Of a stretch of 64,000 nucleotides of DNA, positions 10,114 through 64,000 are shown piece by piece. The position numbers and the translations under genes were made by a program. The stretch spans positions 1,696,001-1,760,000 of the forward strand of contig OY969706.1 in the NCBI GenBank assembly GCA_963702095.1, read 5' to 3'. This stretch comes from Candidatus Bathyarchaeota archaeon. Lineage in GTDB: Archaea > Thermoproteota > Bathyarchaeia > Bathyarchaeales > Bathycorpusculaceae. The notes below the pieces were generated by a model. That model worked only from the letters and a program-made list of their open reading frames with translations, ran no database searches and was not told the origin of the DNA. The number at the start of each line of letters is the position of its first letter. Position 1 is the stretch's first letter.

Positions 10114-10252
10114 CCCCTTTTTTTAAGCGGCCAAGCACTTAGCAACAGAACTCTGCTCGGCAAGCTTAGGTAGCAATTGCAAGACCACTACCACATACGT
10201 TTATAAAATGCAACATTCAAAAGGTTTTTAGCAGATAATGCGTTGAAGCGGC

Positions 10253-12142
10253 ATGGGCAGAAGTAGAGAAATAGCTTCGCTTTTTTTCATCGGCGTCTTT
10301 GTGGTGATCATTGCTATCCCTACCGCCATAGCAAGTGTTCCAAGCGTTTCAGCGCTACCTAATTCCACATACACTGAGCAATTCACCGTTTTAGGACACA
10401 GATTGTATCTTTCAGTTGAGCCTTCACTTATTAGCTACTACGGTAACCTCAGTGACGCGTTGAGTTCTGACAGGGACTGGGCAAAATTGGTAACTCCTAA
10501 CGCAGTGCAACCGATCGCTGACAGCATATTAAAAATCACACATGACTTGTCAAACAGCGATGAACAATTCGCTGACGCTGTGTTATCGATGGTTCATCAA
10601 ATCCCCTATAACATAACAGGAGCAAAATACCCTGTTGAAACCTTAGTGGATAATAACGGCGACTGCGGTGCCCTCTCACTGCTTGCGGCATCTATCCTTA
10701 AAGCGGGAGGATTAGACGTTATCTTGATCAAGTATACAGGGATAGACCCCGGACACATGAACGTCGGTGTCTACTTGCAACATTCACCGGTTTACCATAG
10801 TTTCTTTATGAGCACCAACAGTTTTGAATGCGACAACAAAACCTACTGGACGGCAGAAGCTACAAATGCCCAAGACTGGAAAGTCGGAGACCAATCCGAT
10901 ATCCTGTCAGTGGCACAGCATATTTGTATTCCACTAAATAATTCAGCGCAATCATCGCCTGGACAGGTATGCGTAAGTATGGATAAACCGCCAAATGCTT
11001 CTTCGATAACAGTGAATGTATCCACGCAATCTATTAGCGCACGGCAAAACAGGTCACTTGTAATCTATGGCGAAATCCCGCTTTCAAACGCCACTAACAA
11101 CATAAGCTTATATGTTAACAGAAACGGATCTTGCGCAAACTACTTTTCAGCTTTCACGGATACAAATGGCAGCTACCGCTTCGTATGGAATTTCTCTTCG
11201 GATGGCACCTATTATATTACTGCAAGCTGGAGCGGCAACGGAACAGTTAGAGGGGCAGACAGCGAAACTCTTGTGGCTTTTGTTGGACCGCAATCGTTAT
11301 TGCAGTTTTCCTCCGACGCTTATAACTACATCATTGCTCGGGGAATGGGCAATCCAACTAAGCCTAACATTGGAATTAACAAGTTCCTCAGCATCCCACT
11401 TCAAACAAACATTTCCTTAAGCTACGATTTTATTGTCCTCAACACGGGCAGCGGAGCATCAGGGATTCCAACTCAAACCTTTACTCTACCAGCCGAACAA
11501 CAACAAGTCATACGAATCATGAACAGGCAAACTGTCCAAGTTATTCCCAAGCCTGCTCGAACCATAGTGGTGCCAACTGAAGTACCCACAGGTATGGAGG
11601 TGCTGCGGTTACCTGATGATTTTAACCGAACTATAAACAGTAACTTTGCACTTATTCTACAGAAATCCAATAGCAGCTACATTTTAGACATTAAAGGATT
11701 AAATGACTATGACCTTTCAGATTTAAAAGGAAGCCAAAGTAACGCTACAGTCCTAAACGCAACCCAGAATGTACTACAGGGTACCTGGTATAGAGTTGTA
11801 AATACAATCTTGGATGATGGTGTAACCACCGATCTTCAAGCAAAGAACGACACCTCGCTTCTAAATTATTCGTCTACAGAAAAGCTCGATGACGCCAAAC
11901 AGCTTGCACTGCTCATCGCAAACAGCGTGGATAGCGCCATTGTTATGAAAAACATTAAAATCGAACAAATTACCACACCTCAACCAACCCAATCCGCTAA
12001 CGCCGATTCTAAACTCCCAGCCTCATTCTTGCTCTACCTTTTCGGTTTAATGGCGTTAGTAATTGCGATCTTTGTAGCCCCAATAATTTATGTTGTAGCC
12101 AAAAAACAAAGGTATACTAAAGCGAAATCAGCAGTGGTTTAG
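10253..12142 (+). CDS. Membrane-anchored transglutaminase-like (Cys-His) surface protein
   Basis: QIPY...KYPVETL...GDC, GHMNVGV and AEAT motifs; Ig-like segment; N- and C-terminal TM helices. Confidence 0.7.
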   Translation: MGRSREIASLFFIGVFVVIIAIPTAIASVPSVSALPNSTYTEQFTVLGHRLYLSVEPSLISYYGNLSDALSSDRDWAKLVTPNAVQPIADSILKITHDLSNSDEQFADAVLSMVHQIPYNITGAKYPVETLVDNNGDCGALSLLAASILKAGGLDVILIKYTGIDPGHMNVGVYLQHSPVYHSFFMSTNSFECDNKTYWTAEATNAQDWKVGDQSDILSVAQHICIPLNNSAQSSPGQVCVSMDKPPNASSITVNVSTQSISARQNRSLVIYGEIPLSNATNNISLYVNRNGSCANYFSAFTDTNGSYRFVWNFSSDGTYYITASWSGNGTVRGADSETLVAFVGPQSLLQFSSDAYNYIIARGMGNPTKPNIGINKFLSIPLQTNISLSYDFIVLNTGSGASGIPTQTFTLPAEQQQVIRIMNRQTVQVIPKPARTIVVPTEVPTGMEVLRLPDDFNRTINSNFALILQKSNSSYILDIKGLNDYDLSDLKGSQSNATVLNATQNVLQGTWYRVVNTILDDGVTTDLQAKNDTSLLNYSSTEKLDDAKQLALLIANSVDSAIVMKNIKIEQITTPQPTQSANADSKLPASFLLYLFGLMALVIAIFVAPIIYVVAKKQRYTKAKSAVV

Positions 12143-12321
12143 CTGCCGTTTGAGTAATCCTCCTTCAAAATCTGAGTAACTACAGAGCTGCAAAATCACC
12201 TAGTTTGCGGGACGCTGCTTTAACAGGGGATAGATGATGTCGCCGTCCCAGCCTCAGGGCAAGTAATTTACACTCTGGTTGATTTATAATACCACAAAGA
12301 AAAGCATGGTATACCCGCATG

Positions 12322-12705
12322 CTATCTTGTTAACCAGCTATTTTTTTTGAAGCTTCGAATTGCAGGAAACAGTACCCATGGCAATACAAAAGCGGACATT
12401 AAATTCATCACTGGTTTATACTTCCATTGCTTGGCTGTTGGATCCCTAAATTTGTAGTCTAAACCCATAACTATTCCAATCATCAACTGTCCAGCCAAGT
12501 ATGTAACAGGGTACAAGTATGAGTGAAGAAAAATTGGACCATAAATGAATATGGAAATGATTATAGCTGGAGAGATAAAGGCTGACATGAACTCCAAATA
12601 GAACATCACAGCCATTATCGGGCCGAAAAAAAGGGGGCTTATCATAGCGAAACCCCCAGTGAGCACCAAAACTGTTACGATTGTTGCGACAACCCGCAGC
12701 CTCAA
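12322..12705 (-). pseudogene. Membrane protein fragment, probably the C-terminal TM part of a GT2 glycosyltransferase
   Basis: Three TM segments ending SWLTR, as in membrane GT2 C-termini; no catalytic N-terminus; lies directly after a sugar-dehydrogenase remnant. Confidence 0.45.
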
Positions 12706-12789
12706 ATCCTGGACTGCTCCTTTTTGGTTTGTGAAGATTGTATCGTAATTTCGCTGGGCAAAACAACCGTCATTTCAAGTTTGCTTTGG

Positions 12790-13015
12790 TCTTTATATAT
12801 CTCGTTGGAATGGAGTGCAGCGGATATGATGGATGAGGCAATAGGTGTTTGGATAGTTCATAATACATTCTTGTATCTTTAGGTAGGCAGTGTCCGCCTA
12901 TGCCTTGTCTAGCTTCTAGAATGTTTTCGTTCCATTTTGTATTAACTGAGGCTCGGAGTTTCCTGAAAGTTAAGGCCTTGGTCGTCGCAGAACATTTTTA
13001 GTTCTTCTGCTCTGA
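12790..13015 (-). pseudogene. Remnant of UDP-glucose/GDP-mannose (nucleotide-sugar) dehydrogenase
   Basis: Manual minus-strand translation gives AEELKMFCDDQGLNF / ELRASVNTKWNENILEARQGIGGHCLPKDTRMY; catalytic GGHCLPKD at 12875-12898; frameshifted, no Rossmann N-terminus. Confidence 0.75.
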
Positions 13016-13422
13016 AATACTGTAAAATGGGGAGCAGGAGTATCTTCAGAAGGGCAAGCCCTCAATTGATTCTTTTGTCTCTGTTTCTTAAGAACGCGTA
13101 CGCCCGGGAGCGCCTTGTAATCTCTCAAAGTCCATTAGCATTTTTGACCGCACTTCTTTTGCTCAACAGACCGCTCTAGCATATTTTCGCATGTTTAACG
13201 CCTAGAAACTTTAACGCTTACGCGTCAACATAGTTTCCCAGACGTTGCCGTCCGTGTAACTCTGAGTTTTCATCCCGTTAAGTCAACTTAATGCCTTCTC
13301 ATCATCCGGCAAACACATTAATGAAGCCGAAAATAAAAGCCTTTAACCATCAAGTGTAGAATACTTATGGGATTACACTTTTATTGGTGTTCAAGTAAGC
13401 ATTTGGTAAGGAGTAGTATACC

Positions 13423-27904: not shown

Positions 27905-28144
27905 GTGGGGGGTTTATGTTTTTATCGCTTTGAAGGTGTGTTTTGTGTTAGTAGTTGTTGGTGAAGAGTGCCTATACACAACAACAACCAGCGGGCTGTG
28001 TCGGTGGCTGCTTTTTTGTGTCTGTGTTGGTTTTGGGTTGCTTGTTGGTTGTGGCATTTTCCTCAAGTAGTTCGTTTCTGCAGGGATTAGATGCCTTGCT
28101 TTTGGGGTCTTGCTTCTTCTTGATTGGGCAAATTGGTTTTTTGA

Positions 28145-28320
28145 CTTTATGTGGGTGTGGCGGTTTGTGGGGTGCCACAGACTGCAACTGGAGGCACTGC
28201 TTTTGGGGGTTGCAATGTTTTTCTTGTCTGTCGGGGTGTGGCAACGGCGTTTTCCTCCACACGGGATACATGGTTCCATGCAGAAGCGGTCGGGATGTGT
28301 TGTGAATCCATGCACCGTCT
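28145..28320 (+). repeat. Dispersed intergenic repeat, copy B
   Basis: CTTTATGTGGGTGTGGCGGTTTGTGGGGTGCCACAGACTGCAAC...CATGGTTCCATG. Confidence 0.85.
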
Positions 28321-28628
28321 GGAAATAATTCCACACCTCAGCAAAGAAAAAGAGTTCAAACGGCAAAGCAATTTTTGACCACTGATAAAGGCGGTATATC
28401 GCAGGTTCTGTTGCTTTCCAATCTGTCCCCTTTCCTTATGGATAGAAGACTGTTTTAACCACTTAAACCTCAAAGGGTAAATATGCATCGTTAACCAATT
28501 GCACTAAATTCGTCCAATAACACGTGTGCTGAAATGCACTAATGAACCTGGAGATAGCATTCTACTTAAATTGCTGATATGAACTAAGAAAATAGTTAAT
28601 AACTTAAAGAGAAATAATCCACCATAAA

Positions 28629-31600
28629 GTGGCAGTGGAAATTTTGGAAAAGAAAGAAGCTAAAGATGACAAAAAAACAGTGGATTTTCCAGTTGTCGGC
28701 GTCGGCGCTTCCGCAGGCGGATTAGACTCCTTTAGGGGTTTACTTGAAAGTTTACCAGCCGACACAGGGTTATCGCTTGTTATTATACAACATTTGGCAG
28801 CTGGCCAAGAAAGCATGCTTGCCGAAATTCTTTCAAGATACACCAAAATGCCCGTCCAAGTTATCCAAAACGGAATGAAAGTAAAACCGAACCATGTTTT
28901 TGTGATTCCGCCTGGAGCAACTGTGACAATTGAAAATAAAGCTCTCAAACTCAGTGAAAAAGAAAAGTCTCTGAAGCCGAGACCTATAGATGATTTTTTT
29001 AAGTCACTGGCAACTGATTTGAAATCTAAAAGTATAGGGATTGTGTTTTCAGGCACTGGTTCGGATGGAACTGAAGGCTTAAAAGCAATCAGAAGCCAGG
29101 GCGGAATCACTTTTGCGCAGACGCCCAAATCCGCTCAATATCAAGATATGCCACAAAGCGCAATCTCCGCTGGCGTAGCAGATTTCGTTTTATCACCCTC
29201 TGAAATTGCTAAAGAACTGGAAAAAGTAGCGAGCAACCCTCAATTAGCTCATGCTGGGATTGGGGCAAAAGAAGAGCGAAGGGGTGCTGAAACAAAACCA
29301 AGGAAGGAAAATGCTTTAAACGCTATATTTACAATATTAAAATCCAAGTACAATGTTGATTTTTCCCACTACAAAGAAACAGTGGTTAACCGACGCATTT
29401 CACGTAGAATGGTAATAAATCATGTGGAAAAATGGCTAATTACAAAGAATACCTCAATACACATCCAAACGAGCAAGAAGCATTATTCAATGACATGCTA
29501 ATTGGGGTTACAAACTTCTTTAGGGAACCTGAAACTTTTGTTGCCCTAAAAGAGGCTGCATTTCCAGACATAGTGGCGAAGCATTCGCCGAAGGAACCCA
29601 TTAGGATTTGGGTTCCAGGTTGCTCAACAGGGGAAGAAGCCTATTCATTTGCAATAGCCATCACAGAGTTCCTCGAGGAAAAATCAATAACTGATCTTCA
29701 AATTTCAATTTTCGGAACCGACATAAACGAGAAAAATATAGAAAAAGCAAGACTGGGGATTTACCCAAAAAGCATCGAAGAGGATGTTTCTGAAGCCCGC
29801 CTAAAACGTTTCTTCACAAACATAAACGGCAGCTATCAAATAAGCAAAATTATTCGGGACCAATGCGTTTTTGCACAGCAAGACCTAACCGCTGACCCCC
29901 CATTCTCAAAGATCGATATTATTAGCTGCCGCAACATGCTCATTTACTTTGACGAATACCTCCATGGAAGAGTATTGCCAACAATGCATTACGCATTGAA
30001 GGAGAACGGTTTTCTTGTTCTCGGACAGTCCGAAAGTATAGGGAAATTCACGGGTTTATTCGAACAAATTAAGAAGACATCAATTTATGTAAAAAAGCGA
30101 ACCCAACCCAGCATTACCTTTGGATTAAAGATTTCTCCTTCCCCCCAACAGAAACTAAAGGGAGTCAATGTTGGAATAAAAAAAGATGCACTTTCCATTT
30201 TGAAAGATGAAATTGACCAATTATTAATAACCGAGTATGTCCCCGCTGCTATGCTCGCTAACACAAATTCTGAAATTCTGCTTTTCCGTGGGAACATTGC
30301 CCCTTACGTATTACCTGAATCTGGGCTTGCGAGTTTCAATGTGGGCAAGATTCTTCGCAAAGAATTAAAGTCTCAAGTCCAAACGATGATTTTCAGGGCT
30401 AAAAAAGAAAATAGGCCCATAAAGGAAAATGCAATTCGCATAGATTTTTCTAAAGAACAAAGAACGATCAATATTCAAGTAATCCCGTTGCGTTTTGAAC
30501 AGTTTGAGGAGCCTTTTTTCCTAATCATGTTTGAGGACATTAGTTCCGCAGCGGCGCTGCTTCGACAAACTTTAGAGTTAGCGTCCACTCCTCAGTGGCG
30601 AAGAGGGTGCAAAAGACCGACAGATTAAGGAACTCAGAGAGGAATTAGATTCCTCTAAGCTATCTTTGCAGAAAATTATTGAAACGCAGGAAGCCACCAA
30701 CGAAGAGTTAAGAACCACTATGGAAGAGGCGCAGTCTAGCAATGAGGAGCTACAAAGCACCAATGAAGAGTTGGAAACAGCTAAAGAAGAGCTTCAATCG
30801 AGCAACGAAGAATTAAAAACGTTGAATGACGAAGTTAAGAATCGAAATCAACAACTATCACAGTTAAACGACGACTTAGTTAACATTAATAGAAACATAG
30901 GTCCTGCAATCGTTATATTGGATAAAAGTCTCAGGGTCAGGTTGTTTTCGCCTTCATCACAGAAAATTCTAGACCTGTTGCCCTCTTCAATTGGGCTACC
31001 AATAACTGGTATTAAGCTAAATATTGACTTGGAGGATATAGCCGCTAAAATTTCTGAAGTGATTTCAAAACTTACTGGTCTTACCCAAGAGGTGAAGGAC
31101 GAGAAGGGTCAATATTATGAAATGCAGATTAAACCCTACATAACACTAGACGATAAGATAGACGGCGTTGTCTTATCGTTTATAGATATTGGGGATAGAA
31201 AAGAACTTGAAAGAGCACAACGACTTGCCGCCATAGGAGAAACCGCGGGCATGGTTGGTCATGACATTCGCAACCCACTGCAAGCGATAATCGGCGATAC
31301 TTATTTGCTTAAGGACTATTTTGCTAGAATGCCTGAAGGGCCACTTAGGGAAGATGTAGCTGAAAGTTTAGGTGGCATGGAGAAAAATGTTGAGTACATT
31401 AACAAGATTGTTGCTGATTTGCAAGACTATGCAAAAGCGGTCCAACCAATTGCTCAAGAGACAGACCTTGAAGCTTTGTGTAGAGAATTACTTCAGGGAA
31501 AAAATATCCCTGAAAATATTAGTGCTGAATGTAAAGTCGAGAGTACAGCTAAAAAACTCTTGGTTGACGGTAATATACTAAAGCGCATTCTTGAGAATCT

Positions 31601-31907
31601 AGTCACTAACGCAATCCAAGCTATGCCAAACGGGGGAAAACTAACCATGAGCGCACATCGAGAAGTAGTCGATACAGTTATCCTTGTAGAGGATACGGGT
31701 TTAGGTATTCCTGACAAAGTTAAAAGTCAGCTTTTCACTCCCTTCTACACGACCAAGTCTAAAGGGCAAGGCTTGGGCTTAGCCGTGGTCAAACGTATGG
31801 CTGAAGCACTACATGGAAAAGTAACCTTTGAAAGCATAGAGGGCAACGGAACAACATTTATCCTACGATTACCCAAGCAAAAACCAGTTGACAGAAACTC
31901 GAATTAG
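28629..31907 (+). CDS. CheB-CheR-coiled coil-PAS-histidine kinase fusion; frameshifts near 29430 and 30600
   Basis: CheB GASAGG/QHL/GTGSDG; CheR WVPGCSTGEE and CRNMLIYF; EELQSxNEEL repeats; HDIRNPL and N/G1/F/G2 boxes; spread over three consecutive ORFs. Confidence 0.9.
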
Positions 31908-32000
31908 ACAGTTATGCAGTTTTTGCTGAAAAAATAGCTAGAGGATAAGTACTTTCAGAGTGCAATGAAAGGATGGAGAAGCAGCTTCCTGAAAGCTCGC

Positions 32001-35949: not shown

Positions 35950-38458
35950 ATGCTTAAAGAGGTAATCTTAGGCGGTCTGTGGAGATTCAAAGGCTTCCGC
36001 GGATGCGACGGAGAAGAACAAGGAGCCTACCGAACAGACATCAACATCGACGATTGGTTGCTGGCAGAGGCACCCCTGACTGCCCACACCAATTTGTTAG
36101 CTAACAAGATTATCCCCGACCCGTTCATGGGCGTCAACGAGCGCGATGTGCAGTGGGTTAACGAGAGCGAGTGGTGGTACCGCAAAGAAGTAGAGTTGAC
36201 CCCCGAATTAATCGGCAAAGACATTGTAGAGTTGGCTTTTGAAAGCTTAGACACCTTCGCAACCATCTGGGTAAACGATGTCAAAGTGGGCGAAGCAAAC
36301 AACATGTTCACGCCCTGGCGTTTTAGCATAAAACAAGCCGTTAAAACAGGAAAAAACCTCATCGTAATCCGATTCAAACCCATCAACAAAGTCGCCGCTG
36401 AACTCGAAAAGCAGCACCAGCACAAATACGTGAGTTTGAGCGCAGACAACTTTTCTGCCCGACCCTACGTGCGGAAGGCTCAGTACTCGTTTGGCTGGGA
36501 TTGGGGGCCAACGTTGCCGACAGCTGGGATTTGGCGGAAAGCCAAAGTCGTCGCATATGACACTGCAAGGATAGGGTATTTGGCTGGGTTGCCTGAGGAA
36601 GTATCCAGTGATAGGGCAAAGGTGAAGCTAAGCGTGGAAGTTTATGCTGCAAAAGATGTCGTGCTCCAAGTAAAGTTTGTGCTTGCTGGGTTTGGGCAGA
36701 AAAGTGAACAGGATATGGAACTCGAAAACCAGGGTTGGCAGAAACTTTGCTGACTGCACCCTAGAAGTTGAGAGTCCAAGGCTTTGGTGGCCCCAAGGAT
36801 ACGGCGAACCCAACTTATACATGGCAACCGTCCAAGTGCTCGACAAAGAAGAACTGCTCGATGAATCCACAGTTAAAGTCGGCGTAAGAAGCATCCGTCT
36901 TGTACAGGAGCCCGACGAAGAAGGAAAAACCTTTATCTTCCAAATCAACGATCAAAACGTCTTCTGCAGGGGCGCAAACTGGATACCCGCCGATTCGTTT
37001 CTGCCCAAAGTCAACTATGAACGCTACGCTAAACTCCTCGATTACGCGGCAGAAGCCAACTTTAACATGCTCCGTGTCTGGGGCGGAGGAGTATACGAAG
37101 CCGACGAATTCTACGACCTCTGTGACGTATTGGGAATTATGGTTTGGCAGGATTTCATGTATGTCTGCGCAGGCTACCCTGAAGAGGAATGGTTCCTAAA
37201 AGAAGCAGAACGGGAAGCCATGGAAGCCGTGCTGCGGTTGCGGGGGCACCCCTCCATTGTGTTGTGGTGTGGCAACAACGAGAACCAATGGTTACACTCT
37301 GTACTATGGCGGGTACGCGACAAAGTCGAGCGCCTGTATGGCTCACAAATCTATGAGTCGCTGCTGCTTAGGGTCTGCCAGTTTCTGGACCCCACCAGAC
37401 CTTACAGGCCAAGCACACCCTTTGGGGGAGAAGACGCCAGTGGGCGACATGAAGGCGACAGGCATAACTGGGAGGTTTGGAGCCAAGGCATCGATTACCC
37501 CGCTTACTTGGAGGATAATGGGCGGTTCATTTCAGAGTTCGGTTGGCAAGCTCCGCCTACGATGAAGCTGCTGCGCTCTTACATTGAAAAGCAGGATTTG
37601 AACCCTGATTCCTTTGCGTTTCGGGCACATGAAAAACAAGTTGGCGGCTTAGAACTGCTAAAGGCTCTGTTATCGATACATTACCCTGTTCCTCCGGATA
37701 TGGAGCGGTTTGTGCTCTACAGTCAACTTAACCAAGCTGAAGCCCTAAAAACAGGAGTAACCCACTGGCGCAGCCGCATGTTCAAAACCAGCGGATGCCT
37801 CATTTGGCAACTTAACGATTGCTGGCCAGTTATCAGCTGGAGCCTCATCGACTACGGTTTAAACCCTAAACCAGCCTACTATGCTGTTAAACGGGCATAC
37901 CAACCCGTTATTGCACCGTTTATTGTTAAGGGCGACAGTTTGGAATGCTACATCATAAACGAGACAACCGCAGAATTAGATACAAAGTTAAGGTTTGAAG
38001 TGATGAGTTTTAGCGGAGAGGCACTGTTTAACCAGGTAATTGAGAACACCGTGCCGTCGTTCTCCTCAAAACTTGCGCTGGAAAAACCGTTGGGTGGTCT
38101 GCCAGCCAGAGACGATTGCATTTTGGTGGCGATGTTGGAAAGCGCCGGCAAAGAAATCGCCGTAGACACCAAAACCATAGCTGAACCCAAAAACCTAAAA
38201 CTCCCCGCCGCACCAATCCACGTCACTCCAAAAAAAGTAGGCTCCAAAACCTTTGAAGTCACCCTTCAATCATCCGTCTACGCCAAAGCCGTTGCGTTGG
38301 ATACAAGCGATTTAGGCTGCAAGTTCAGCGACAACTTTTTTGACTTAGTCCCGAACAGACCAAAAAACGTTCTGTGCCATCTAGAAAAAGAGTTAAGCCC
38401 AGAACAATTTAACAACGCATTAAGCTGCCAATCATATCCTTATCGTCAACAGACCTAA
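35950..38458 (+). CDS. GH2 beta-mannosidase; frameshift near 36720
   Basis: RKAQYSFGWDWGP, GANWIP, RVWGGG, WQDF, WCGNNE, SEFG and WQLNDCWP motifs across two ORFs. Confidence 0.92.
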
Positions 38459-39554: not shown

Positions 39555-39827
39555 ACCCAGTTCAAACTCTCTCCTATTGATTCATCTGATATTCGCCGTA
39601 GGCCTCAGCGTGCACTGCCCGATGCGTTTGCTGAGCTTTTCGACTCGGGCTAAAAGGTATTGCTACCCTAGTTTGCCATTCAGTTTACACCCAAAAAGGG
39701 TTTTTAACATATATTAATCAAATGGCGAGTTAACAGCATTTTCTCCAAGCATCATAACAAGCAGAAAAGCAATAACTCAAACAAACGTTCAATCGAAAGG
39801 TGGACGGTTGAAAGAAAAATTGGGCGG

Positions 39828-40283
39828 TTACGCCCGTTTTATGGGTGCAAATGTTATTTCGATTTCGCCCCATCCTGATGCCGCAGTGGATTCCGCTGTT
39901 TCTGCGCTGGTTGATTGTTTTGCAGTTGCCTCCTCCTGTGGGTTGAAAGCTACTCGTACCTTGCTGTAGACGCTGAAGTTCTTGGGTAAATCACGTTCAA
40001 TGACAAAGCCCACACGTGTAATAAGCGCTTGACGTATCTGATCGGTTGTCAACGGCGTTGTTGGTAGAGGTTGAAGCTTCTTTTTGCCTGCTTCAATACT
40101 GATTTTTATTGGCAATTTAACCCTGAGATTCTGGATACTTAGCAACGCACTGCTTTTACCTAAGTCTGTCCCCTCCGTGTCTGCAACTGTGCTGATATAG
40201 TCAAGGGCGCTTTGGACTTCATTGTGGATGGCAAGTATCGCTTCTGTCAGGTAGGATGCGTTTTTTTCAGTTGCTTGTGTCAT
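39828..40283 (-). CDS. Hypothetical protein, third gene of the tripartite operon (Trypco2-like layout)
   Basis: Start overlaps the upstream stop (ATGA); helix LTEAILAIHNEVQSA, strand LSIQNLRVKLPIKI, final strand GEIEITFAP. Confidence 0.75.
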   Translation of the reverse strand: MTQATEKNASYLTEAILAIHNEVQSALDYISTVADTEGTDLGKSSALLSIQNLRVKLPIKISIEAGKKKLQPLPTTPLTTDQIRQALITRVGFVIERDLPKNFSVYSKVRVAFNPQEEATAKQSTSAETAESTAASGWGEIEITFAPIKRA

Positions 40284-40984
40284 AGAACCACCGTTTTAAA
40301 GGTTATTTGTACTTCACTTAGTACGTCGGCTTTGAGGGACAGGAATTCTGGGCGGTTAGTGTTTACTGGTTGGGCAACGATTTTGCGGATACCTATACCC
40401 GCGATTTTTGAACCAGTCGTGGAAGTAGACGACGCAGTTGAGTCCACTTCAAACCTCAAGGTAAGTTTTGAAGTTATTTGCCCATTATCCACGTAAACTC
40501 GGGGGATGCCACGTGAAACGACTGTTCGGATGACGGCTAAATGCTGCATAGCCAAAGCCAAGCGTGCCGCAGCTAAAATGTTGTTATAGCCAGCGGTGCT
40601 GATTACGGTTTTTCCTCGGTTTACGCGATCTACAGTTAAGTCGCTTTTTGTTATCTTGTAGCCGGTTTTGCTATAGATTGGGGGTGATTCGCCTGTTTCC
40701 TTGTTGCTTGTGTATGGTTCGCCTGCATCTGCCGCGCTTTTGTCTGGGGTGCCTGTGCTCGAGGGAAAAAGCCTTAGAATTTCCGCTCGGAGTATGTCGT
40801 CGGTTAGGTTTTCTTTGGCATACTCCTCCGCTGAAAGTTGAGCTTGCTGTGCTAGCTGTGCAACCTGTTTTTCCTGTGTCAGTATTGAGGTAACTACTGC
40901 GTTGAGGGTTTCGGAAATAAGTGTGGAGGCGAACTCAGCAAAGCCCATCTCTGCCGATTTCGCTGTGCTGACTGCCATATTCAT
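40280..40984 (-). CDS. Hypothetical protein, second gene of the tripartite operon; paralog of 40989-41774
   Basis: FAEFASTLISETLNAVV, GIPRVYVDNGQITSKLTL and SEVQITFKT align with the first gene. Confidence 0.8.
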   Translation of the reverse strand: MNMAVSTAKSAEMGFAEFASTLISETLNAVVTSILTQEKQVAQLAQQAQLSAEEYAKENLTDDILRAEILRLFPSSTGTPDKSAADAGEPYTSNKETGESPPIYSKTGYKITKSDLTVDRVNRGKTVISTAGYNNILAAARLALAMQHLAVIRTVVSRGIPRVYVDNGQITSKLTLRFEVDSTASSTSTTGSKIAGIGIRKIVAQPVNTNRPEFLSLKADVLSEVQITFKTVVL

Positions 40985-40988
40985 GCAT

Positions 40989-41774
40989 CTAGGTGGTCAT
41001 GGGTTGATAGTCAGTCTTGAAGTCGATTTGAACGCGTCCGTAGATTTGCACTTGGCTGCCTGAGATGTCGCGGTTGGTTTCTCTGGCGGTTGAGATGTTT
41101 AGGGTGTTGAAGCTTGTGGAGGCTGAGGCTTTTACCCAGAGGCTGGTTAATCCTCCGGTGCCTGCGGATGCCCGTGCAGAGAAAGACGAGGTGTTGTAGT
41201 TGTTTTTTGTGTTTTCGTAGAAGGTGTTGGCGTAAGTGTTGAAAGTTAGGCGTGTTTCTATGACTCCGTGTTCAACGACTAATCTGAGTACGCCCATCTT
41301 TACCATTTCCTTTAGCAAGGTGTATTTGTCTGCAGCGATTCTTTTGGCGACTGCTTCAAGTATCGCATCTAAGGCGGTTTGGTTGGCTATCGATGTTGCT
41401 GTAATTCCGGGGTTATCCTGTACATCGGGAACTACAAGGGCGCTGTTTAATCTGTCTGCATCCGCGGTTGTTAAGGTTGCGCCCACTCGGATCTTGGTGC
41501 CGCTTGTATCTGAGGTGTCTGGAAGGAGCCGAGCCAAAAACTGCAGGATCATTTCGCCGCTGATGTCATCTTTGGTGTCGTTGATGTAGGTAACTAAGGA
41601 TTTGGATACTGCCTGCATAAGGTCGACGTATGCCTCGGTCTGGCGGATGTTCGCAGAAATCAAGGCGTCGAAGACGTCGGTTATGAGTTTAGCTGTGAAC
41701 TCGGGGAAACGGATTTCTCCCAGAGGCGATTGAGCGCCTGCTGCCGAAAGTTTCTGTGCGGCAACTAGGGACAA
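40989..41774 (-). CDS. Hypothetical protein with Ser/Thr-rich amphipathic beta-hairpin, first gene of the tripartite operon
   Basis: GGAGG 9 nt upstream of the TTG start; FPEFTAKLITDVFDALI, GVLRLVVEHGVIETRLTF and GRVQIDFKTDY. Confidence 0.8.
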   Translation of the reverse strand: MSLVAAQKLSAAGAQSPLGEIRFPEFTAKLITDVFDALISANIRQTEAYVDLMQAVSKSLVTYINDTKDDISGEMILQFLARLLPDTSDTSGTKIRVGATLTTADADRLNSALVVPDVQDNPGITATSIANQTALDAILEAVAKRIAADKYTLLKEMVKMGVLRLVVEHGVIETRLTFNTYANTFYENTKNNYNTSSFSARASAGTGGLTSLWVKASASTSFNTLNISTARETNRDISGSQVQIYGRVQIDFKTDYQPMTT

Positions 41775-42014
41775 ATTAGTTCGCCTCCAGTTGACCGAAC
41801 ACTATTGTGTGGGGATTGGTTTGTTCCTTGTTGGGGGTTGCTTGTTTTTGCATATGGGTCACAAGCGGTCACTAGCCTGCTTTCATTAATAAGACTTGCT
41901 AAAGAATTTGTGTCTAAACTTTCTGTTGCACAAGTAAGAAAGCCCAAGGATATAGACAGGATTATCAAAAAACTCTTATGTACTTGAATGGGACATACAG
42001 AGAAGCGATGCAGC

Positions 42015-42398
42015 ATGCAAACTGATACAGAAGCAAAAATAAAAGCGGACCTCCTAGCAGAAACCCAAACCCTTGAACAGAACTACAAAATCTTAGCTGG
42101 ATTCACTTCAGGAAAAGATTACGACCCCGCAACCGTGGGCAACAGCATCCAAGCCTTCAAAGACAGCCTCAGCCGCGCCAGCGCCTACGTATTAGCCCTC
42201 TACAACCTCAAGGGCCAACGGGTCAACATCCCCTGGGAACAACTCTTTACAAGCCTCGATTACGCGTTGGCGACGCTTTCAACTTCTGCTTCCACCAAGG
42301 GCAGGGATGCGGTTAGGGCGGTTTTGGCTATGTCGCAGGAGCAGATGGGGCAGGTCATGTCCTATTTTGCTGCGCTCAAAGAATCACTTACCCAGTGA
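42015..42398 (+). CDS. Hypothetical all-helical protein, divergent from the tripartite operon
   Basis: 127-aa ORF with amphipathic helical pattern. Confidence 0.7.
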   Translation: MQTDTEAKIKADLLAETQTLEQNYKILAGFTSGKDYDPATVGNSIQAFKDSLSRASAYVLALYNLKGQRVNIPWEQLFTSLDYALATLSTSASTKGRDAVRAVLAMSQEQMGQVMSYFAALKESLTQ

Positions 42399-42870: not shown

Positions 42871-43791
42871 ATGCACAACGGTGCCCTCTTGGATAAGACA
42901 GACATTATCCTCTGCCAACTTCTCCTAGGCAACTCAAGGATTTCCTACCGTGAACTGGGACAAAAACTGGACCTCTCCGTAACCGCAGTGCATAACCGCA
43001 TTCAAACCCTAATAGAATTAGGCATAATACGCAAGTTTAACACAAGCCTAAGTGTTTTCGCCCAAAACGCCATACACGTGTTGATGTTTGGGCTTTCAAA
43101 AGCCACCTCTGTCTTAGATGTGAAAAACCGCGTTGAGAATCAAGGGTCGATTTACTGGTTGGCAGCCGGCGGCGGAAACATACTATATTTAGGCGCGTAT
43201 TTGAGAAACATCGGGGATTTGGAATTGCTGGTTCGCTTTGTAAAAGAAAAAGCCGAGATCCCCGAGTTAACTGTGGGTTTAATGGGTTCACCTATGCCGC
43301 CCATTCTAAGAAACATTAACTTCAAAAAAATCGATACCAAACTCTGCGACTTAGACTACAAAATCATTCGAGCCCTAAAAGATAACTCACGTAAACCCAC
43401 CTCCGAGATAGCTGAGGAAATCGGTGTATCCACAAAAACCGTTAGACGCCGCCTCGGCATGATGGAGAAGAATTTTCTGGTTCAGTTCTCCATAGAATGG
43501 TACCCGGATGCCTCTAACGATTTACTGAGTGTATTCCACGTTAACATAAAAGACGACGCTAACCCCAATGTTGTAAACGCCATTTTGCAGCAACATTACC
43601 CCAACACATTATTCTACTGGAGCTTCAGCAATATACCGGACAGCTACATCTTTATGATTTGGACGCCGACCAGTAAAGAAGTCCGTGAAGTCCGAGAAGA
43701 CATTGAAAGGAACCCTGCCGTCAAATCAGTCGCCCCCAACGTCATATACACAGGCTACATTTTTTCAACTTGGCGCGACCAAACCCCCTAG
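42871..43791 (+). CDS. Lrp/AsnC family regulator with two tandem HTH units
   Basis: LDKTDIIL...NSRISYRELG...VHNRI and LDYKII..LKDNSRKP..EIA...TVRRRL. Confidence 0.88.
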   Translation: MHNGALLDKTDIILCQLLLGNSRISYRELGQKLDLSVTAVHNRIQTLIELGIIRKFNTSLSVFAQNAIHVLMFGLSKATSVLDVKNRVENQGSIYWLAAGGGNILYLGAYLRNIGDLELLVRFVKEKAEIPELTVGLMGSPMPPILRNINFKKIDTKLCDLDYKIIRALKDNSRKPTSEIAEEIGVSTKTVRRRLGMMEKNFLVQFSIEWYPDASNDLLSVFHVNIKDDANPNVVNAILQQHYPNTLFYWSFSNIPDSYIFMIWTPTSKEVREVREDIERNPAVKSVAPNVIYTGYIFSTWRDQTP

Positions 43792-43810: not shown

Positions 43811-44548
43811 CTATGGGGTTGAGTATTCTATTGCAATGTTGCCGTTGCCAGAGTTAAGCGACAAACTGAGGTTTCCCTCCCCACCCGAAGTAGCGCCCTT
43901 AAGACGGGTTGCCGAATCAGGGCTTGCATCCAAAGTGATTCCCTGATGGGTTATCTTGCCGTTTCCAACGCTGGCGGCAACTTGAAAGAGCGTACCTTGC
44001 GTTAAATCGATTTTGACGTTGCCATTCACTGACATGGCGTCGATTTCGGTGGCGCCGCCGTCTTTGAGGTCTATGTTGCCGTTGCTGGTGGTAGCCACTA
44101 CTTTGGTGTCGTTTAGTTGGGGTTTGATTATGTTGCCGTTTGCGGTGTTTAGGGTCAAGTTGTATGAGCTGGTATTGGGCAAATTGAGGATAAGGTCTGC
44201 CTTATAGTTGCTGGCTTGGTTAATCTGGAGATTGGCGCTGGTTGTTATGGTCGTTGTATTGTCGGTTTTGGTTTCGTTTGTGTATGTCTGTATGTCATTT
44301 AGGTACCCTTCCTGTGCTGTTACGTTGTAGATGACTTCGATTTGGCTGCCGGTTGTCGATTGGATCACTATGTCGCCGTTGAATGTTCCAGCTTGAATTA
44401 CAACGTTTGGCTTGGGCGTGTACTGTGTTTTGTCTTGTCTCTGCGCCAACGGAGCCGTAGCGTGGTATAAAACTGCATAGACACAGACTGACAGAATGGC
44501 GGCTATCACGATGACTGCAAATATGATGCTTCGGGTGGATCGCTTCAC
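43811..44548 (-). CDS. DUF4097-like (adhesin beta-repeat) membrane-anchored protein
   Basis: N-terminal TM; repeated TxNGNI units. Confidence 0.8.
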   Translation of the reverse strand: MKRSTRSIIFAVIVIAAILSVCVYAVLYHATAPLAQRQDKTQYTPKPNVVIQAGTFNGDIVIQSTTGSQIEVIYNVTAQEGYLNDIQTYTNETKTDNTTTITTSANLQINQASNYKADLILNLPNTSSYNLTLNTANGNIIKPQLNDTKVVATTSNGNIDLKDGGATEIDAMSVNGNVKIDLTQGTLFQVAASVGNGKITHQGITLDASPDSATRLKGATSGGEGNLSLSLNSGNGNIAIEYSTP

Positions 44549-61636: not shown

Positions 61637-62035
61637 GTGTTTGAGGCATGTTTCTTGTCGGAAAATGTTTGGAAGAAACCTGTAATCTGCATCTTCAAAG
61701 AACGATCAGCGGGTAACTGGCAATCTGACCCCTTTGTCGTGATCAAAGCTAAACAGGTAACCCTCAATGACACTGGAGAAGACCCCAAGTATACAGGAAA
61801 GCTTGAGGATTTCTTTACGCTGATGGGTGATACCGATTATCTGTCTTCAGCTGAAGGCAAAGCTGACCACTATGTAATGTGCTGGTTTGACGACGCTGAA
61901 CCTGATGAAACCAAGGATCTTCGGCGCCTGCGAGGCGTGCGGATAACAGGCGAGGTTTTCTGCAGTTTAAACGAGAAAACCCACAAAAGAACATACAATG
62001 CGTCTTTCTCTGCTGATCAAGCAAAAATAGAATAG
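61637..62035 (+). CDS. Hypothetical protein
   Basis: 132-aa ORF following a TTTTTATAA box. Confidence 0.65.
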   Translation: MFEACFLSENVWKKPVICIFKERSAGNWQSDPFVVIKAKQVTLNDTGEDPKYTGKLEDFFTLMGDTDYLSSAEGKADHYVMCWFDDAEPDETKDLRRLRGVRITGEVFCSLNEKTHKRTYNASFSADQAKIE

Positions 62036-62080
62036 GAAAACTTTTCAAGAGACATTGCGGAAACTTTTTATCACAAACGA

Positions 62081-63231
62081 TTGCTAAACGTAATTATGGG
62101 AAATGTCCGTAAGACTTTTGTTTATTTTCTCGCGATTTTCTTCTTGACTTCTCAATTTATAATACCCACCGTATTCGCGAAAGGGCAAACCATTGAAGGT
62201 GCTATCGTTATTAATGCCGATGGCTCAATAAGTCCCAACAATAATTCTATTCCCATCGAGAAGGTTAACAATACTTACTTATTTACGGGTGATATTTATG
62301 GCTCAATAGGCGTAGAATGCAATAATGTAGTGATTGATGGGAATGGATTTAGTATTAATCTTGAAACATCTACTTTAACAGATCAATTGAACTGGAGGTG
62401 GAATGGGTCAATTGGCTTGCATTTATGTCATGTCAATAATGTAACAATTACTAATTTAGTTATAAAAAATTTTCATGATGTCCCTTATGATGGTCTTGGG
62501 TTTGAAGGATATGGTATCTTTCTTGATAGCTCTACAAACGTAAGTATTTACGATAATACCATAACTGGTAATGACATAGGTGTTAAGATTAGGGGATCAA
62601 ACAACAACAATATTTACTGCAATTGTATTTCCAACAATTCGGGGATTAAAGGCGCGGGAATTTGGATAGGGGATTCGAGCAATTCCAATAGTGTTTTCAA
62701 TAATAGTTTATCTTCGAATGAAAATGGCGTTTTCATCATTAATTCAAACAATAACATCGTTTACTTTGATGACATAAGAAGCAATACACAAGTTGGTATT
62801 TGGGCCAATTCTGATGCAGAGCACAACATTTTTTACCTCAATAATTTTATGGGAAATTTGAAAAGTGCGCTAGTTTTAGGAACTACCGCTAATTCTTGGG
62901 ATAACGGTACGTTTGGCAATTACTGGAGTGATTATCAAATAAAATACCCTAAGGCCTGTCAAGCGACGGAAATGGAATAGCAGACATTCCTTATGAGATA
63001 GCGCTTGATGACATGGAACGTTCTCATGCAATAGCAAACTATAATGTCGACCATTACCCTTTGGCACAATCGATTAATATTAGCACTTCACCAATCACTA
63101 TTCCTGAGTTTCCAATACTGGCAATTCCGTTATTGCTTTTAGTTTTGTTACTCACCGGTATTGCGTTTAAGCATCGAATTTACGAGAAAAATAAAAGCAA
63201 GAAGCATCGTGAAAACTTTGATGCGTTTTAA
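62081..63231 (+). CDS. NosD-like right-handed beta-helix surface protein with PEF-CTERM-like tail; disrupted near 62960-63010
   Basis: GIxLxxSxNxxI repeats, WDNG..GNYWSDY, then DHYPL...IPEF-TM-basic tail in the next ORF. Confidence 0.8.
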
Positions 63232-63301
63232 TCGGAAGAAGAAAAAAGTGAATTTTTGAATGCCCTCGGAAAAGATTACTTCATAAAGAAAAAAGGGGGT
63301 G

Positions 63302-64000
63302 TTAATGTTTTCTTTTTTTAAGCGTAATCGTTAATCCTGCTAAAACTGCTGATGTTATGGTTATTCCTATGACGACTAGCGCAAGGTTTGCGTTTATTAC
63401 TTGAGGCTCTTGGTGCGGTAGTGATAGATTTGAAACTGCACTTGGTTGAATAGTTGTATTGGGCAGAATTTGTCCACTAGGTGTTTGACCAACGAAATTC
63501 CAGTAAGCAACTTGGCCGTTGTCTGCCCAGACGCCGATTTCAATGCCATCTGTGGAGTAGTATTCTTTGTCTGTTAGAAACTTTATATCATAAAGTGCAT
63601 AAGCTGTCATGTTGCCCCTTACCGAACCGATCAGAGTAACTAAAGGGTACTTCATGAATTGAATAGCAACATTTCCAACGCCTACTATCGATACAGAGGT
63701 TATATTCGTTGCTTGATTCCAAGCAGTATTTATTGCTTCATCTTTGTTGACCTTAAGTCTTGTATCGCCAACTTTGTAAAGGTTCGAGGTGTCTGAGAAA
63801 GCAGCCAAATCACCCGCTTTGTTAAACGAGATTATTAATCGATTGGGGTAATCAACACCGTTATAACTTGGTATAAAGAAAACATCTGTAGTCGGGTTGT
63901 TAATCTGAAGGTCTATTTTTAAGTTGTTTTTAGTGACTGAGAGTGAATTAGTGCCATTGTTATAGCTATTTACAGTATCTAACATTTCGTCCAATGAGGA
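63302..64000 (-). CDS. Secreted membrane-anchored protein, 5' end outside the window
   Basis: Open frame to the window edge; PepSY-like segment; TM plus KKRKH. Confidence 0.7.
   Translation of the reverse strand, partial: SSLDEMLDTVNSYNNGTNSLSVTKNNLKIDLQINNPTTDVFFIPSYNGVDYPNRLIISFNKAGDLAAFSDTSNLYKVGDTRLKVNKDEAINTAWNQATNITSVSIVGVGNVAIQFMKYPLVTLIGSVRGNMTAYALYDIKFLTDKEYYSTDGIEIGVWADNGQVAYWNFVGQTPSGQILPNTTIQPSAVSNLSLPHQEPQVINANLALVVIGITITSAVLAGLTITLKKRKH

Follow-up and report, generated by a model that had tools for sequence, protein, structure and literature searches.

The Trypco families are defined as neighbours of trypsin-like peptidases (eLife 2020;9:e52696), and the Pepco proteins (Trypco1/2; PF19493/PF19631) are described as proteins of 117 amino acids which consist of an amphipathic helix and β-strands, pre-assemble into 9- to 10-meric β-barrel pores of anti-phage systems and turn toxic once a neighbouring protease cuts off their C-terminal tail (10.1101/2025.11.14.688446). 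According to the same text, the Pepco-associated proteases are fused to sensors, peptidoglycan-binding domains among them (10.1101/2025.11.14.688446). The short DUF2589-related genes AF0414-AF0417 of Archaeoglobus are reported to be lactate-induced (PMC3949148). The present study deals with a three-gene cassette of a Candidatus Bathyarchaeota archaeon (assembly GCA_963702095.1, contig OY969706.1), whose products recall these proteins in layout. The cassette is located in a stretch of 64,000 nucleotides (positions 1,696,001 to 1,760,000 of the forward strand), which was analysed as a whole and is referred to as the window; coordinates are those of the window unless another locus is named. It comprises the following genes:

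40989-41774, minus strand: g1, open reading frame of 261 amino acids with a TTG start; strongly conserved putative core subunit with helical hairpin and β-sheet
40280-40984, minus strand: g2, open reading frame of 234 amino acids; divergent paralogue of g1
39828-40283, minus strand: g3, open reading frame of 151 amino acids with ATGA overlap; small accessory protein

Judged from sequence profiles, g1 and g2 are ancient paralogues which share one fold family. Together with a third gene they constitute an accessory module that moves horizontally, also between archaea and bacteria, and has no fixed neighbours. The products of the cassette probably form a cytoplasmic, non-enzymatic multi-subunit assembly. 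Three minus-strand genes of these lengths had been claimed in a first-pass annotation made from the nucleotide sequence, and open reading frames were found at exactly these coordinates.

Relationship of the three proteins

The first-pass annotation had called g1 and g2 clear paralogues. From the pair itself this is not clear, as BLASTP aligned the two proteins with an E value of 0.30 and 20% identity, but the paralogy was well supported by profile comparison (hhalign probability 99.8%, E 6.9e-28, 217 columns, end to end) and by intermediates: with g1 as the query, the gene at the g2 position was also matched (E 0.004 to 3e-15) in 7 of the 27 loci that were obtained by scanning one genome per species. 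In a tree of 20 g1 and 18 g2 sequences, the g1 and g2 clades were separated by 100/100 branches, and the duplication is therefore older than all sampled spread. Cut, fragmented or ambiguous open reading frames were left out of this tree, which concerned the g1 rows of eight loci (L009, L010, L017, L020, L022, L024, L025 and L027) and the g2 rows of the same eight plus L019 and L023. All peptide motifs quoted in the annotation were present in the translations.

The third protein was said to repeat the skeleton of the other two in miniature, which applies to its C-terminal end. BLASTP gave an E value of 2.2 for g1 and g3 and no alignment for g2 and g3. A first g3 profile aligned to g2 over 14 C-terminal columns, corresponding to the closing strand (hhalign E 1.2e-3, probability 19%), and a deeper profile of 40 g3 sequences aligned to the combined g1 and g2 superfamily profile over 39 columns, corresponding to the last two strands (hhalign E 1.3e-4, probability 54%). 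The sole part of g3 which aligns to g1 and g2 is the following:

39837-39971, minus strand: residues 105-149 of g3, the terminal two strands

Since the alignment is limited to these strands, g3 appears to possess a terminal β-hairpin of the g1/g2 type, but it is not established as a miniature copy.

Distribution and conservation of the cassette

Homology searches yielded 442 relatives of g1 at E ≤ 1e-3 among 1,693 candidates, 258 relatives of g2 at the same threshold among 1.84 billion cluster representatives, and 138 relatives of g3, likewise at E ≤ 1e-3. The 27 loci originate from Bathyarchaeia and other Thermoproteota, Methanocella, Planctomycetota, Bacillota (Acetivibrio), Bacteroidota, Acidobacteriota, Actinomycetota and Pseudomonadota. 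The view of an archaeal system had thus to be given up, as relatives are present in these six bacterial phyla and additionally in Cyanobacteriota. The neighbourhood survey bore out the conservation of the trio, with g2 directly after g1 in 26 of 27 loci, g3 in 15 of 27 and another third gene in at least 7 more.

The three genes differ in their degree of conservation. In the nine closest archaeal loci (L001-L009), identities to the copies in the window amounted to 74-92% for g1, 66-85% for g2 and 56-92% for g3, and in two Bathycorpusculum loci (L016 and L018) to 51-57%, 46-50% and about 43-44%, respectively. The bacterial proteins were 48-63% identical for g1, 26-38% for g2 and, where present, 37-43% for g3. 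As the identity of g1 exceeds that of g2 across the loci, g1 is the strongly constrained core, which is confirmed by g1 branches in the tree that are much shorter than the g2 branches. Such an asymmetry in sequence identity is typically seen where a core subunit that has many interfaces is combined with a divergent partner.

The source genome contains one copy of the cassette. It occurred in 3 of 201 sampled genomes of the class, all of one genus, and in 2 of 11 other genomes of that genus. Among other sampled Pseudomonadota the count was 0 of 400, a count of lower sensitivity with at most 6 candidates scored per genome. In the tree, the Methanocella copies of both g1 and g2 nested within the Bathyarchaeia clade, and the g2 subtree showed an archaeal clade (98/97) inside a set with Acetivibrio and Actinomycetota (95/91). 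No claim is made regarding a transfer donor despite this grouping, since the g1 subtree is unresolved and long branches meet. One Bathyarchaeota locus (L017, 8001-9910) carries g1 in two, g2 in three and g3 in three pieces, and is either a decaying copy or affected by insertions and deletions of the assembly.

Predicted structures of g1 and g2

The AlphaFold2 model of g2, calculated from a superfamily alignment of 123 sequences, reached a predicted local distance difference test score (pLDDT) of 88.8 and a predicted template modelling score of 0.74. It starts with a 44-residue N-terminal helix and two short helices, which are followed by a small insertion of four strands and one helix (residues 92-128) and by a second long helix (residues 130-158). 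The sheet contains the long strands 167-179, 201-206 and 220-230, and the loop at its tip was modelled with low confidence (mean pLDDT 58-61 for residues 181-200). This loop occupies the following stretch:

40328-40447, minus strand: residues 180-219 of g2, variable loop from the long strand to the closing hairpin; length and composition vary

In 5 of 10 long relatives (343-390 amino acids), this loop is replaced by a PA14-like domain around residues 200-300, although all matches (16.8-22.2 bits) were below the Pfam cut-off of 24 bits and are a lead rather than a domain call. Because the closing strand is kept in these proteins, the tip of the sheet appears to be an exposed site that tolerates insertions.

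The g1 model was based on a shallow alignment and reached a pLDDT of 65, with confident helices at residues 23-160 and values below 50 for residues 178-241. Taken together, the models predict two long helices for g1 and g2, the first at the N-terminus, which are separated by a small α/β insertion and followed by three long strands that form a sheet. As far as these models allow a judgement, the fold is not recognisable among the structures of the PDB or BFVD. With the g2 model, the best E value in Foldseek searches of the PDB was 0.23, an aerolysin-like protein appearing at rank 47 (E 2.4). VIA-align compared this model with 48,161 chains and found none at Z ≥ 5; its best Z score was 4.7, and its matches were mostly single helices or helical hairpins. 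The best BFVD match of g2 had an E value of 0.15, and the g1 model gave best values of E 0.089 with Foldseek and Z 4.4 with VIA-align; such weak matches by themselves neither prove a new fold nor exclude any family.

The Ser/Thr/Ala-rich hairpin of g1

Per-column conservation and hydropathy were used to define the most conspicuous element of g1:

41088-41183, minus strand: residues 198-229 of g1, conserved Ser/Thr/Ala-rich amphipathic β-hairpin with the pattern F-x-F-R-A-K-A-x-T-G-G ... S-L-W-x-K-A-S-A-S-T

Residues 198-206 and 209-222 alternate between apolar and polar and thereby form an amphipathic hairpin around the invariant G207. Beside this glycine, A218 and T229 are invariant, and W213, A216, S217, S219 and T220 are nearly so. 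The block 211-220 (S-L-W-x-K-A-S-A-S-T) shows the highest conservation of the whole protein (0.86). In the monomer model the hairpin was of low confidence, and its counterpart in g2 is short and variable. The Ser/Thr-rich insert noticed in the first-pass annotation is consequently present, alternating in g1 and shorter in g2, but it is no loose insert, as it contains the best-conserved block.

The annotation had compared this element to the stems of aerolysin-type toxins. Such stems generally belong to the least conserved parts of these toxins. The hairpin is amphipathic, rich in Ser and Thr and, with residues 198-206 and 209-222, long enough for spanning a membrane. However, the analogy draws solely on the alternation, which is common to every g1 strand, and the supposed stem is hyper-conserved and has an apolar face that consists mostly of Ala. 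From its sequence, the hairpin would be no less suited to tight packing in a protein interface than to the role of a lipid-facing stem.

The third gene and its substitutes

g3 begins with an amphipathic helix, which is followed by a β-hairpin, a linker of low complexity and, as the closing strand, GEIEITF-x-P-x-x-R. A Pfam domain was found in 0 of 120 of its relatives among the matches listed. In 39 of 40 aligned sequences of the family, the protein ends 1-4 residues past the conserved F-x-P-[ILMV]-x-R, and the remaining one has a tail of up to about 20 residues.

The 15 loci with g3 include all archaeal ones and those of Blastopirellula, Acetivibrio and Rubrivivax. In Bacteroidales and Actinomycetota, at least 7 loci contain instead of g3 another third gene, which codes for 200-243 amino acids with a similar N-terminal helix. 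The third gene is thus exchangeable between lineages. Sub-threshold matches of the helix-hairpin-helix type were obtained for 3 of 7 of these alternative third genes and not for g3 itself.

Two loci carry group II intron sequences near the cassette. In a Thermoanaerobaculaceae locus (L013), a group II intron (RF02005, RF02012 and RF00029) with a 607-amino-acid open reading frame inside covers positions 10020-13194, about 0.6 kb downstream of g2 and at the place where the third gene is expected; no g3-like gene was found there. In a Bathycorpusculum locus (L018), a match to a domain of group II introns (RF00029, 42.4 bits) was located at 11813-11889 on the minus strand, about 1.7 kb downstream of the cassette.

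Searches for known families

Neither Pfam, NCBIfam, PHROGs nor PADLOC contained a credible match for g1-g3; the best rows were DUF6323 (E 0.044) and a PHROG (E 0.079). A PDB sequence search with g1 gave a best E value of 0.7. No relative of the cassette was detected in 50,697 phage records, and 0 of 81 candidate stretches of IMG/VR were confirmed. Together with the BFVD search mentioned above, these results show no match to a known enzyme, phage structural or defence family. A description of the g1, g2 or g3 family was not found in the literature searched, which did not extend to supplementary lists of Trypco/Pepco neighbourhoods that might include the family, and no publication linking Bathyarchaeia with pore-forming proteins was found either.

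Similarity to DUF2589 and Trypco proteins

A layout of the DUF2589/Trypco type had been proposed for the three proteins, and this likeness is a fair one, but homology was not borne out. The Pfam models of DUF2589 (PF11655, cut-off 23 bits), Trypco1 and Trypco2 (PF19631, cut-off 24.2 bits) gave no row for g1-g3 at E ≤ 1, and the DUF2589 and Trypco2 models matched 0 of 40 g3 relatives at E ≤ 10, whereby the HMMER filters drop many weak matches. The DUF2589 model also had no match at E ≤ 0.01 in the whole source genome, nor in five bacterial genomes which carry the cassette. True DUF2589 members, in comparison, score 104-118 bits with this model.

For profile comparisons, true DUF2589 members were obtained from 5 of 121 Bacteroidota genomes, and Trypco1 and Trypco2 members from 5 of 201 actinomycete genomes each. 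In hhalign comparisons with DUF2589, g1 reached an E value of 0.14, g2 of 0.45 and g3 of 0.46 and 0.19, and the second gene of the DUF2589 cassette gave 0.25-0.59; the DUF2589 alignment of 22 sequences is shallow (effective number of sequences about 2), so that very remote kinship could be missed. Against Trypco2 (alignment of 6 sequences), the E values were 0.83 for g1, 0.058 for g2 and 0.1 for the superfamily profile. Marginal values were obtained for g3, in which the alignment covers the helix only (E 5.6e-4 with 30% probability and 17 columns; E 1.4e-3 with 17% and 18 columns; 7e-4 for the N-terminal part). For Trypco1 (11 sequences), only g3 was compared (E 0.24). DUF2589 and Trypco2 themselves aligned with an E value of 0.27, which illustrates the limited reach of these tests with small alignments. 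In the ESM Atlas, the nearest named clusters included DUF2589 (g1 0.85, g3 0.82) and Trypco2 (g3 0.79), all below the level at which they would be more than leads. According to these comparisons, membership of g1-g3 in DUF2589 or Trypco is not supported, and the resemblance seems to be one of layout.

DUF2589 genes themselves head three-gene cassettes of co-directional, coupled genes in 3 of 3 full-length loci (L028 1303-3429, L029 183-2364 and L030 1453-3375), whose second and third genes do not belong to a Pfam family. The 120 best matches of the DUF2589 protein range over Bacteroidota and Gammaproteobacteria.

Operon structure

The tight coupling of the genes described in the first-pass annotation could be read in the sequence in all details. 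The ribosome-binding site GGAGG of g1 (41788-41784, minus strand) is located 9 nt 5' of the TTG at 41774-41772, the stop codon of g1 is separated from the ATG of g2 by 4 nt (TAG ATGC ATG), and ATGA serves jointly as the stop of g2 and the start of g3. Equally correct was the claimed absence of signal peptides and transmembrane helices: no signal-peptide-like N-terminus or transmembrane-grade segment was found in g1, g2 or g3 by Kyte-Doolittle analysis, with maximum means over 19-residue windows of 0.92, 1.31 and 0.84, respectively. The operon is flanked by two further features:

41775-41987: intergenic region of 213 bp between g1 and a divergent gene; presumed promoter region, carries the GGAGG of g1 (from reading the sequence)
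39812-39835, minus strand: terminator-like GC-rich hairpin and T-run, spanning the g3 stop; stem 39835-39822, tail AATTTTTCTT

The hairpin and T-run at the g3 stop mark the end of the operon; the terminator scan as a whole was near chance (5 found, 3.2 expected), and this hairpin is notable by its position. A sigma-70 promoter scan of the upstream region gave results at chance level, with a consensus that is not applicable to archaea. Rfam showed no family in the window between 38000 and 44000 at E ≤ 0.1 and no regulatory RNA upstream of the cassette in eight loci. A search of public sequencing runs listed no RNA run and two DNA runs of one study, with 0.05-0.07 of the sampled words.

Genomic neighbourhood

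In the window, the trio is surrounded by genes for an LPG-synthase-type membrane protein, a double AsnC-type regulator, a DUF4097 protein and an ATP-binding cassette transporter. Among 10 neighbours in four bacterial loci, a glycoside hydrolase family 9 cellulase, a phosphate-binding protein, an amidohydrolase, a TonB receptor, an acyltransferase and others were identified. Outside the trio, no gene near the cassette is common across phyla. Secretion genes were absent from the neighbours in the window and in the four bacterial loci.

One neighbouring gene was considered as a fourth component:

41988-42398, plus strand: divergent gene for a helical protein of 136 amino acids; near the cassette in 8 of 27 loci, all of the Bathyarchaeia type, at variable distance

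This protein had no Pfam match, and its sole library match was a weak PADLOC row (RT_UG22, a defence reverse transcriptase; E 0.0039). Because of its occurrence in only 8 of 27 loci and the variable distance, it was rejected.

Some further observations concern the window itself. The regulator mentioned above (42871-43791, plus strand) is a protein of 306 amino acids with two tandem AsnC-type helix-turn-helix domains, and the adjoining gene (43811-44548, minus strand) encodes the DUF4097 'toastrack' protein with a hydrophobic N-terminus. At 35950-38458 on the plus strand, open reading frames of 267 and 593 amino acids overlap at 36677-36753 and read as the halves of a large glycoside hydrolase, which suggests a frameshift or a sequencing error. 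The G+C content amounts to 0.41-0.42 at 28001-32000 and 0.36 at 62001-64000, compared to about 0.47 elsewhere in the window, and these regions may be islands.

Extended operons of distant relatives

A tblastn search against plasmids revealed four records with distant relatives of g1 and g2. Distant g1-like genes are part of long co-directional operons on a Tolypothrix plasmid (L035 1325-12543) and on a Burkholderia pyrrocinia megaplasmid (L036 1060-14828). The g1-like proteins comprise 373-484 amino acids, are 23-32% identical, carry N-terminal extensions of 90-140 amino acids and were matched by hmmsearch with E values of 1e-25 to 3e-31; Burkholderia possesses three paralogues.

Both operons contain an S8 peptidase, to which an α/β-hydrolase and a PG_binding_1 protein are added in Tolypothrix and a nucleotide cyclase in Burkholderia. 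Furthermore, Tolypothrix, Burkholderia and a Thermoleophilaceae locus (L027, 4920-14153) share unannotated genes for proteins of 600-900, 87-122 and 225-273 amino acids, and a protein of about 720 amino acids is encoded in two of these three extended operons. The 225-273-amino-acid protein, which was labelled Trypco2-like/TIG, aligns with its N-terminus to 53 of 78 Trypco2 columns (E 1.5e-3), and the sole Pfam match of its Burkholderia representative was Trypco2 (E 0.0098, 16.6 bits, below the cut-off). In Burkholderia, this gene is located directly upstream of the S8 peptidase gene and overlaps its start.

Most components of the extended operons, including all g1-like and PG-binding proteins, are free of transmembrane-grade segments and signal-peptide-like N-termini; one internal stretch that reaches or slightly exceeds the threshold of 1.6 was found in 5 of 24 proteins, including the Burkholderia S8 peptidase. 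Such gene company is of the kind that is described for conflict systems and Pepco-protease modules, and the extended gene set itself has the appearance of a conflict system that is as yet undescribed.

Putative function of the cassette

The interpretation that is tentatively favoured here is that the trio represents a conflict effector of a new fold which is self-contained and hetero-oligomeric and may act on membranes. g1 and g2 would associate by their edge strands and form a ring or another oligomer, and the invariant Ser/Thr/Ala hairpin of g1 would be a subunit interface. g3 might dock by its terminal g1/g2-like hairpin and act as a cap, adaptor or inhibitor; more generally, g3 or its lineage-specific substitutes could dock by the helix-strand module or by the terminal hairpin. 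The assembly would then perturb a membrane as an effector of defence or stress-induced death, in analogy to the Pepco barrel, which is activated by a protease, although no protease is linked to the trio; the trio would be the minimal form of the assembly system. This interpretation draws on the coupled and conserved operon, the g1/g2 paralogy with its asymmetric conservation, the soluble proteins that match no catalytic family, the confident g2 model with neither a PDB nor a viral match, the insertion-tolerant tip, the exchangeable third gene with its similar N-terminal helix, the patchy distribution of an accessory module, the operon partners of the distant relatives, the published behaviour of Pepco and the ESM Atlas leads. 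It is conceivable, if rather doubtful, that the cassette codes for a new kind of protease-independent, three-component hetero-oligomeric machine of a new fold, akin to prokaryotic death-effector pores in its logic but not in its sequence, with the trio as the minimal form of a larger, likewise undescribed plasmid-borne system linked to peptidases and cyclases and shared by archaea and at least seven bacterial phyla.

Several observations weigh against a conflict effector. The PADLOC-DB 2.0 library gave 0 families for g1, g2 and g3 at E ≤ 1, and homology of g1-g3 to Pepco/Trypco and DUF2589 is not demonstrated. The link to proteases or a defence island, which was among the checks proposed in the first-pass annotation, did not materialise, as no protease, sensor, immunity or defence gene was found next to the trio in the window or among the 10 neighbours in the four bacterial loci, which are housekeeping genes only. 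The connection to protease operons stems from the distant relatives, whose N-terminal extensions of 90-140 amino acids are absent in the trio. In addition, a cytoplasmic pore-former would be lethal if not regulated, and a regulator is not apparent. The identity of 48-63% which g1 retains across domains is also higher than would be expected for a fast-evolving conflict effector.

The main rival, which appears less likely, is a cytoplasmic filament, sheet or shell that is co-polymerised from g1 and g2 and does not kill, with the third gene product as a lineage-specific tether or cap, in a β-hairpin form here and a helix-hairpin-helix form in Bacteroidales and Actinomycetota. The very strong constraint on g1 and the small Ala and Ser residues of the hairpin, which suit tight packing in a sheet, are consistent with a polymer, as are the divergent partner paralogue g2, the exposed and insertion-tolerant tip, the housekeeping neighbourhoods without a regulator, and the absence of signal peptides and transmembrane segments. 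The sub-threshold helix-hairpin-helix-type matches in 3 of 7 alternative third genes would suit a tethering function. However, the fold searches revealed no likeness to known cytoskeletal or shell proteins, the very patchy distribution suits a dispensable accessory function, and the gene company of the distant relatives, with a peptidase, a Trypco2-like gene and a cyclase, is that of a conflict system.

It is improbable that the three proteins are true but very divergent DUF2589/Trypco2 (Pepco) members forming a barrel that is activated by a protease encoded elsewhere in the genome. Such a membership could explain the shared amphipathic helix, strand pair and closing strand, the three-gene cassettes headed by DUF2589, the ESM Atlas leads, the three marginal E values of the g3 helix with Trypco2 and the Trypco2-like partner in the extended systems. 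Against these stand the Pfam models, which matched none of the proteins, the high E values with DUF2589 (0.14-0.46), with Trypco2 for g1 and g2 (0.058-0.83) and with Trypco1 for g3, and the absence of an adjacent protease. Moreover, a charged, Pro-rich cleavable tail after a conserved Ile, as it characterises Pepco, is not present in the g3 family; since its members stop 1-4 residues past the conserved [ILMV]-x-R, no tail is left to be cleaved.

Equally low is the probability assigned to a regulatory or storage complex that is associated with nucleic acids or ligands and has no membrane or conflict role. The helix-hairpin-helix-like motifs of the alternative third genes, the housekeeping contexts and the long coiled helices, which are common in adaptor proteins, would fit such a complex, but the motif matches are below the cut-off, restricted to 3 of 7 and absent from g3, no DNA-binding family was found in g1-g3, and the distribution is too patchy for a core regulator.

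A secreted toxin of the aerolysin or tripartite pore-forming type, directed against competitors or hosts, is highly improbable. The alternating Ser/Thr-rich hairpin of g1, the three related components in one operon and the PA14-like, glycan-binding insertion in relatives of g2 are reminiscent of such toxins; however, signal peptides and nearby secretion genes are lacking, g2 is without the hairpin, the hairpin of g1 is the best-conserved block with mostly Ala on its apolar face, no β-pore-forming toxin or ClyA-type chain rose above chance in the fold searches (aerolysin-like protein at rank 47, best VIA-align Z 4.7), and the carriers are free-living anaerobic archaea and soil bacteria. That the cassette is a structural or lysis module of a phage or another mobile element, to which the cross-domain transfer, the patchiness and the four distant relatives on plasmids might point, is largely refuted and has next to no probability left, given the best PHROG E value of 0.079, the empty searches of phage records and IMG/VR, the BFVD value of 0.15 and the lack of integrase or phage genes among the neighbours examined.

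Relatives of g1 are thus found by the hundreds and are about 50-60% identical between archaea and distant bacterial phyla, and a family name, a recognisable fold or a publication was not found for them. If the favoured interpretation as a pore-forming or death effector holds, the logic of protease-gated pores (Pepco, EACC1, gasdermin) would be extended to a multi-subunit form without a linked protease, and to archaea; if the products form a structural polymer, a new prokaryotic ultrastructure would be at hand. The compact trio offers a small and tractable entry to the larger uncharacterised system linked to peptidases and cyclases, and is a good target for structure determination.

Comparison with known systems

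Pairs of paralogous subunits are known from polymers such as gas vesicles (GvpA/J), R-bodies (RebA/B) and BtubA/B, in which a conserved major subunit is combined with a divergent paralogue and which are encoded by sporadic, horizontally spread clusters in bacteria and archaea. The cassette shares this arrangement by analogy only, as no sequence or fold similarity to g1-g3 was found. Paralogous subunits encoded in one operon, with long helices and a β 'tongue' or hairpin, are also known from tripartite and binary pore-forming toxins (the α-pore-forming toxins ClyA, Hbl, Nhe and AhlABC, and the aerolysin-type β-pore-forming toxins). In contrast to these, the proteins of the cassette are smaller, lack a secretion signal, possess a hyper-conserved hairpin and occur also in archaea, and the fold searches remained at chance level.

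The likeness to the DUF2589 cassettes extends further. These also consist of three co-directional genes of similar sizes (200-289, 234-272 and 183-194 amino acids), and the DUF2589 protein likewise contains a helix, a long strand, a Ser/Thr-rich segment ('FKASASY') and a closing strand. Its conservation across phyla is high, with 67% identity or more among the 120 best matches, and it is at the same time rare (5 of 121 Bacteroidota genomes). However, genes 1 and 2 of the DUF2589 cassettes are no evident paralogues, and the DUF2589 protein has a C-terminal helix after the sheet and no second long helix.

From Pepco, the cassette differs in the lack of an adjacent protease and of a cleavable C-terminal tail, and in having three distinct subunits where Pepco has one. 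With two long helices and an additional α/β insertion, g1 and g2 reach twice the size of a Pepco protein, and g3 comprises 151 amino acids compared to about 117. Nevertheless, both are small, non-enzymatic, cytoplasmic proteins with an N-terminal amphipathic helix followed by β-strands, presumably oligomerise by their strands and show a patchy distribution. The extended relatives of g1 and g2 add a further point of likeness, since in their operons a Trypco2-like gene overlaps the gene of an S8 peptidase and a PG-binding protein is present.

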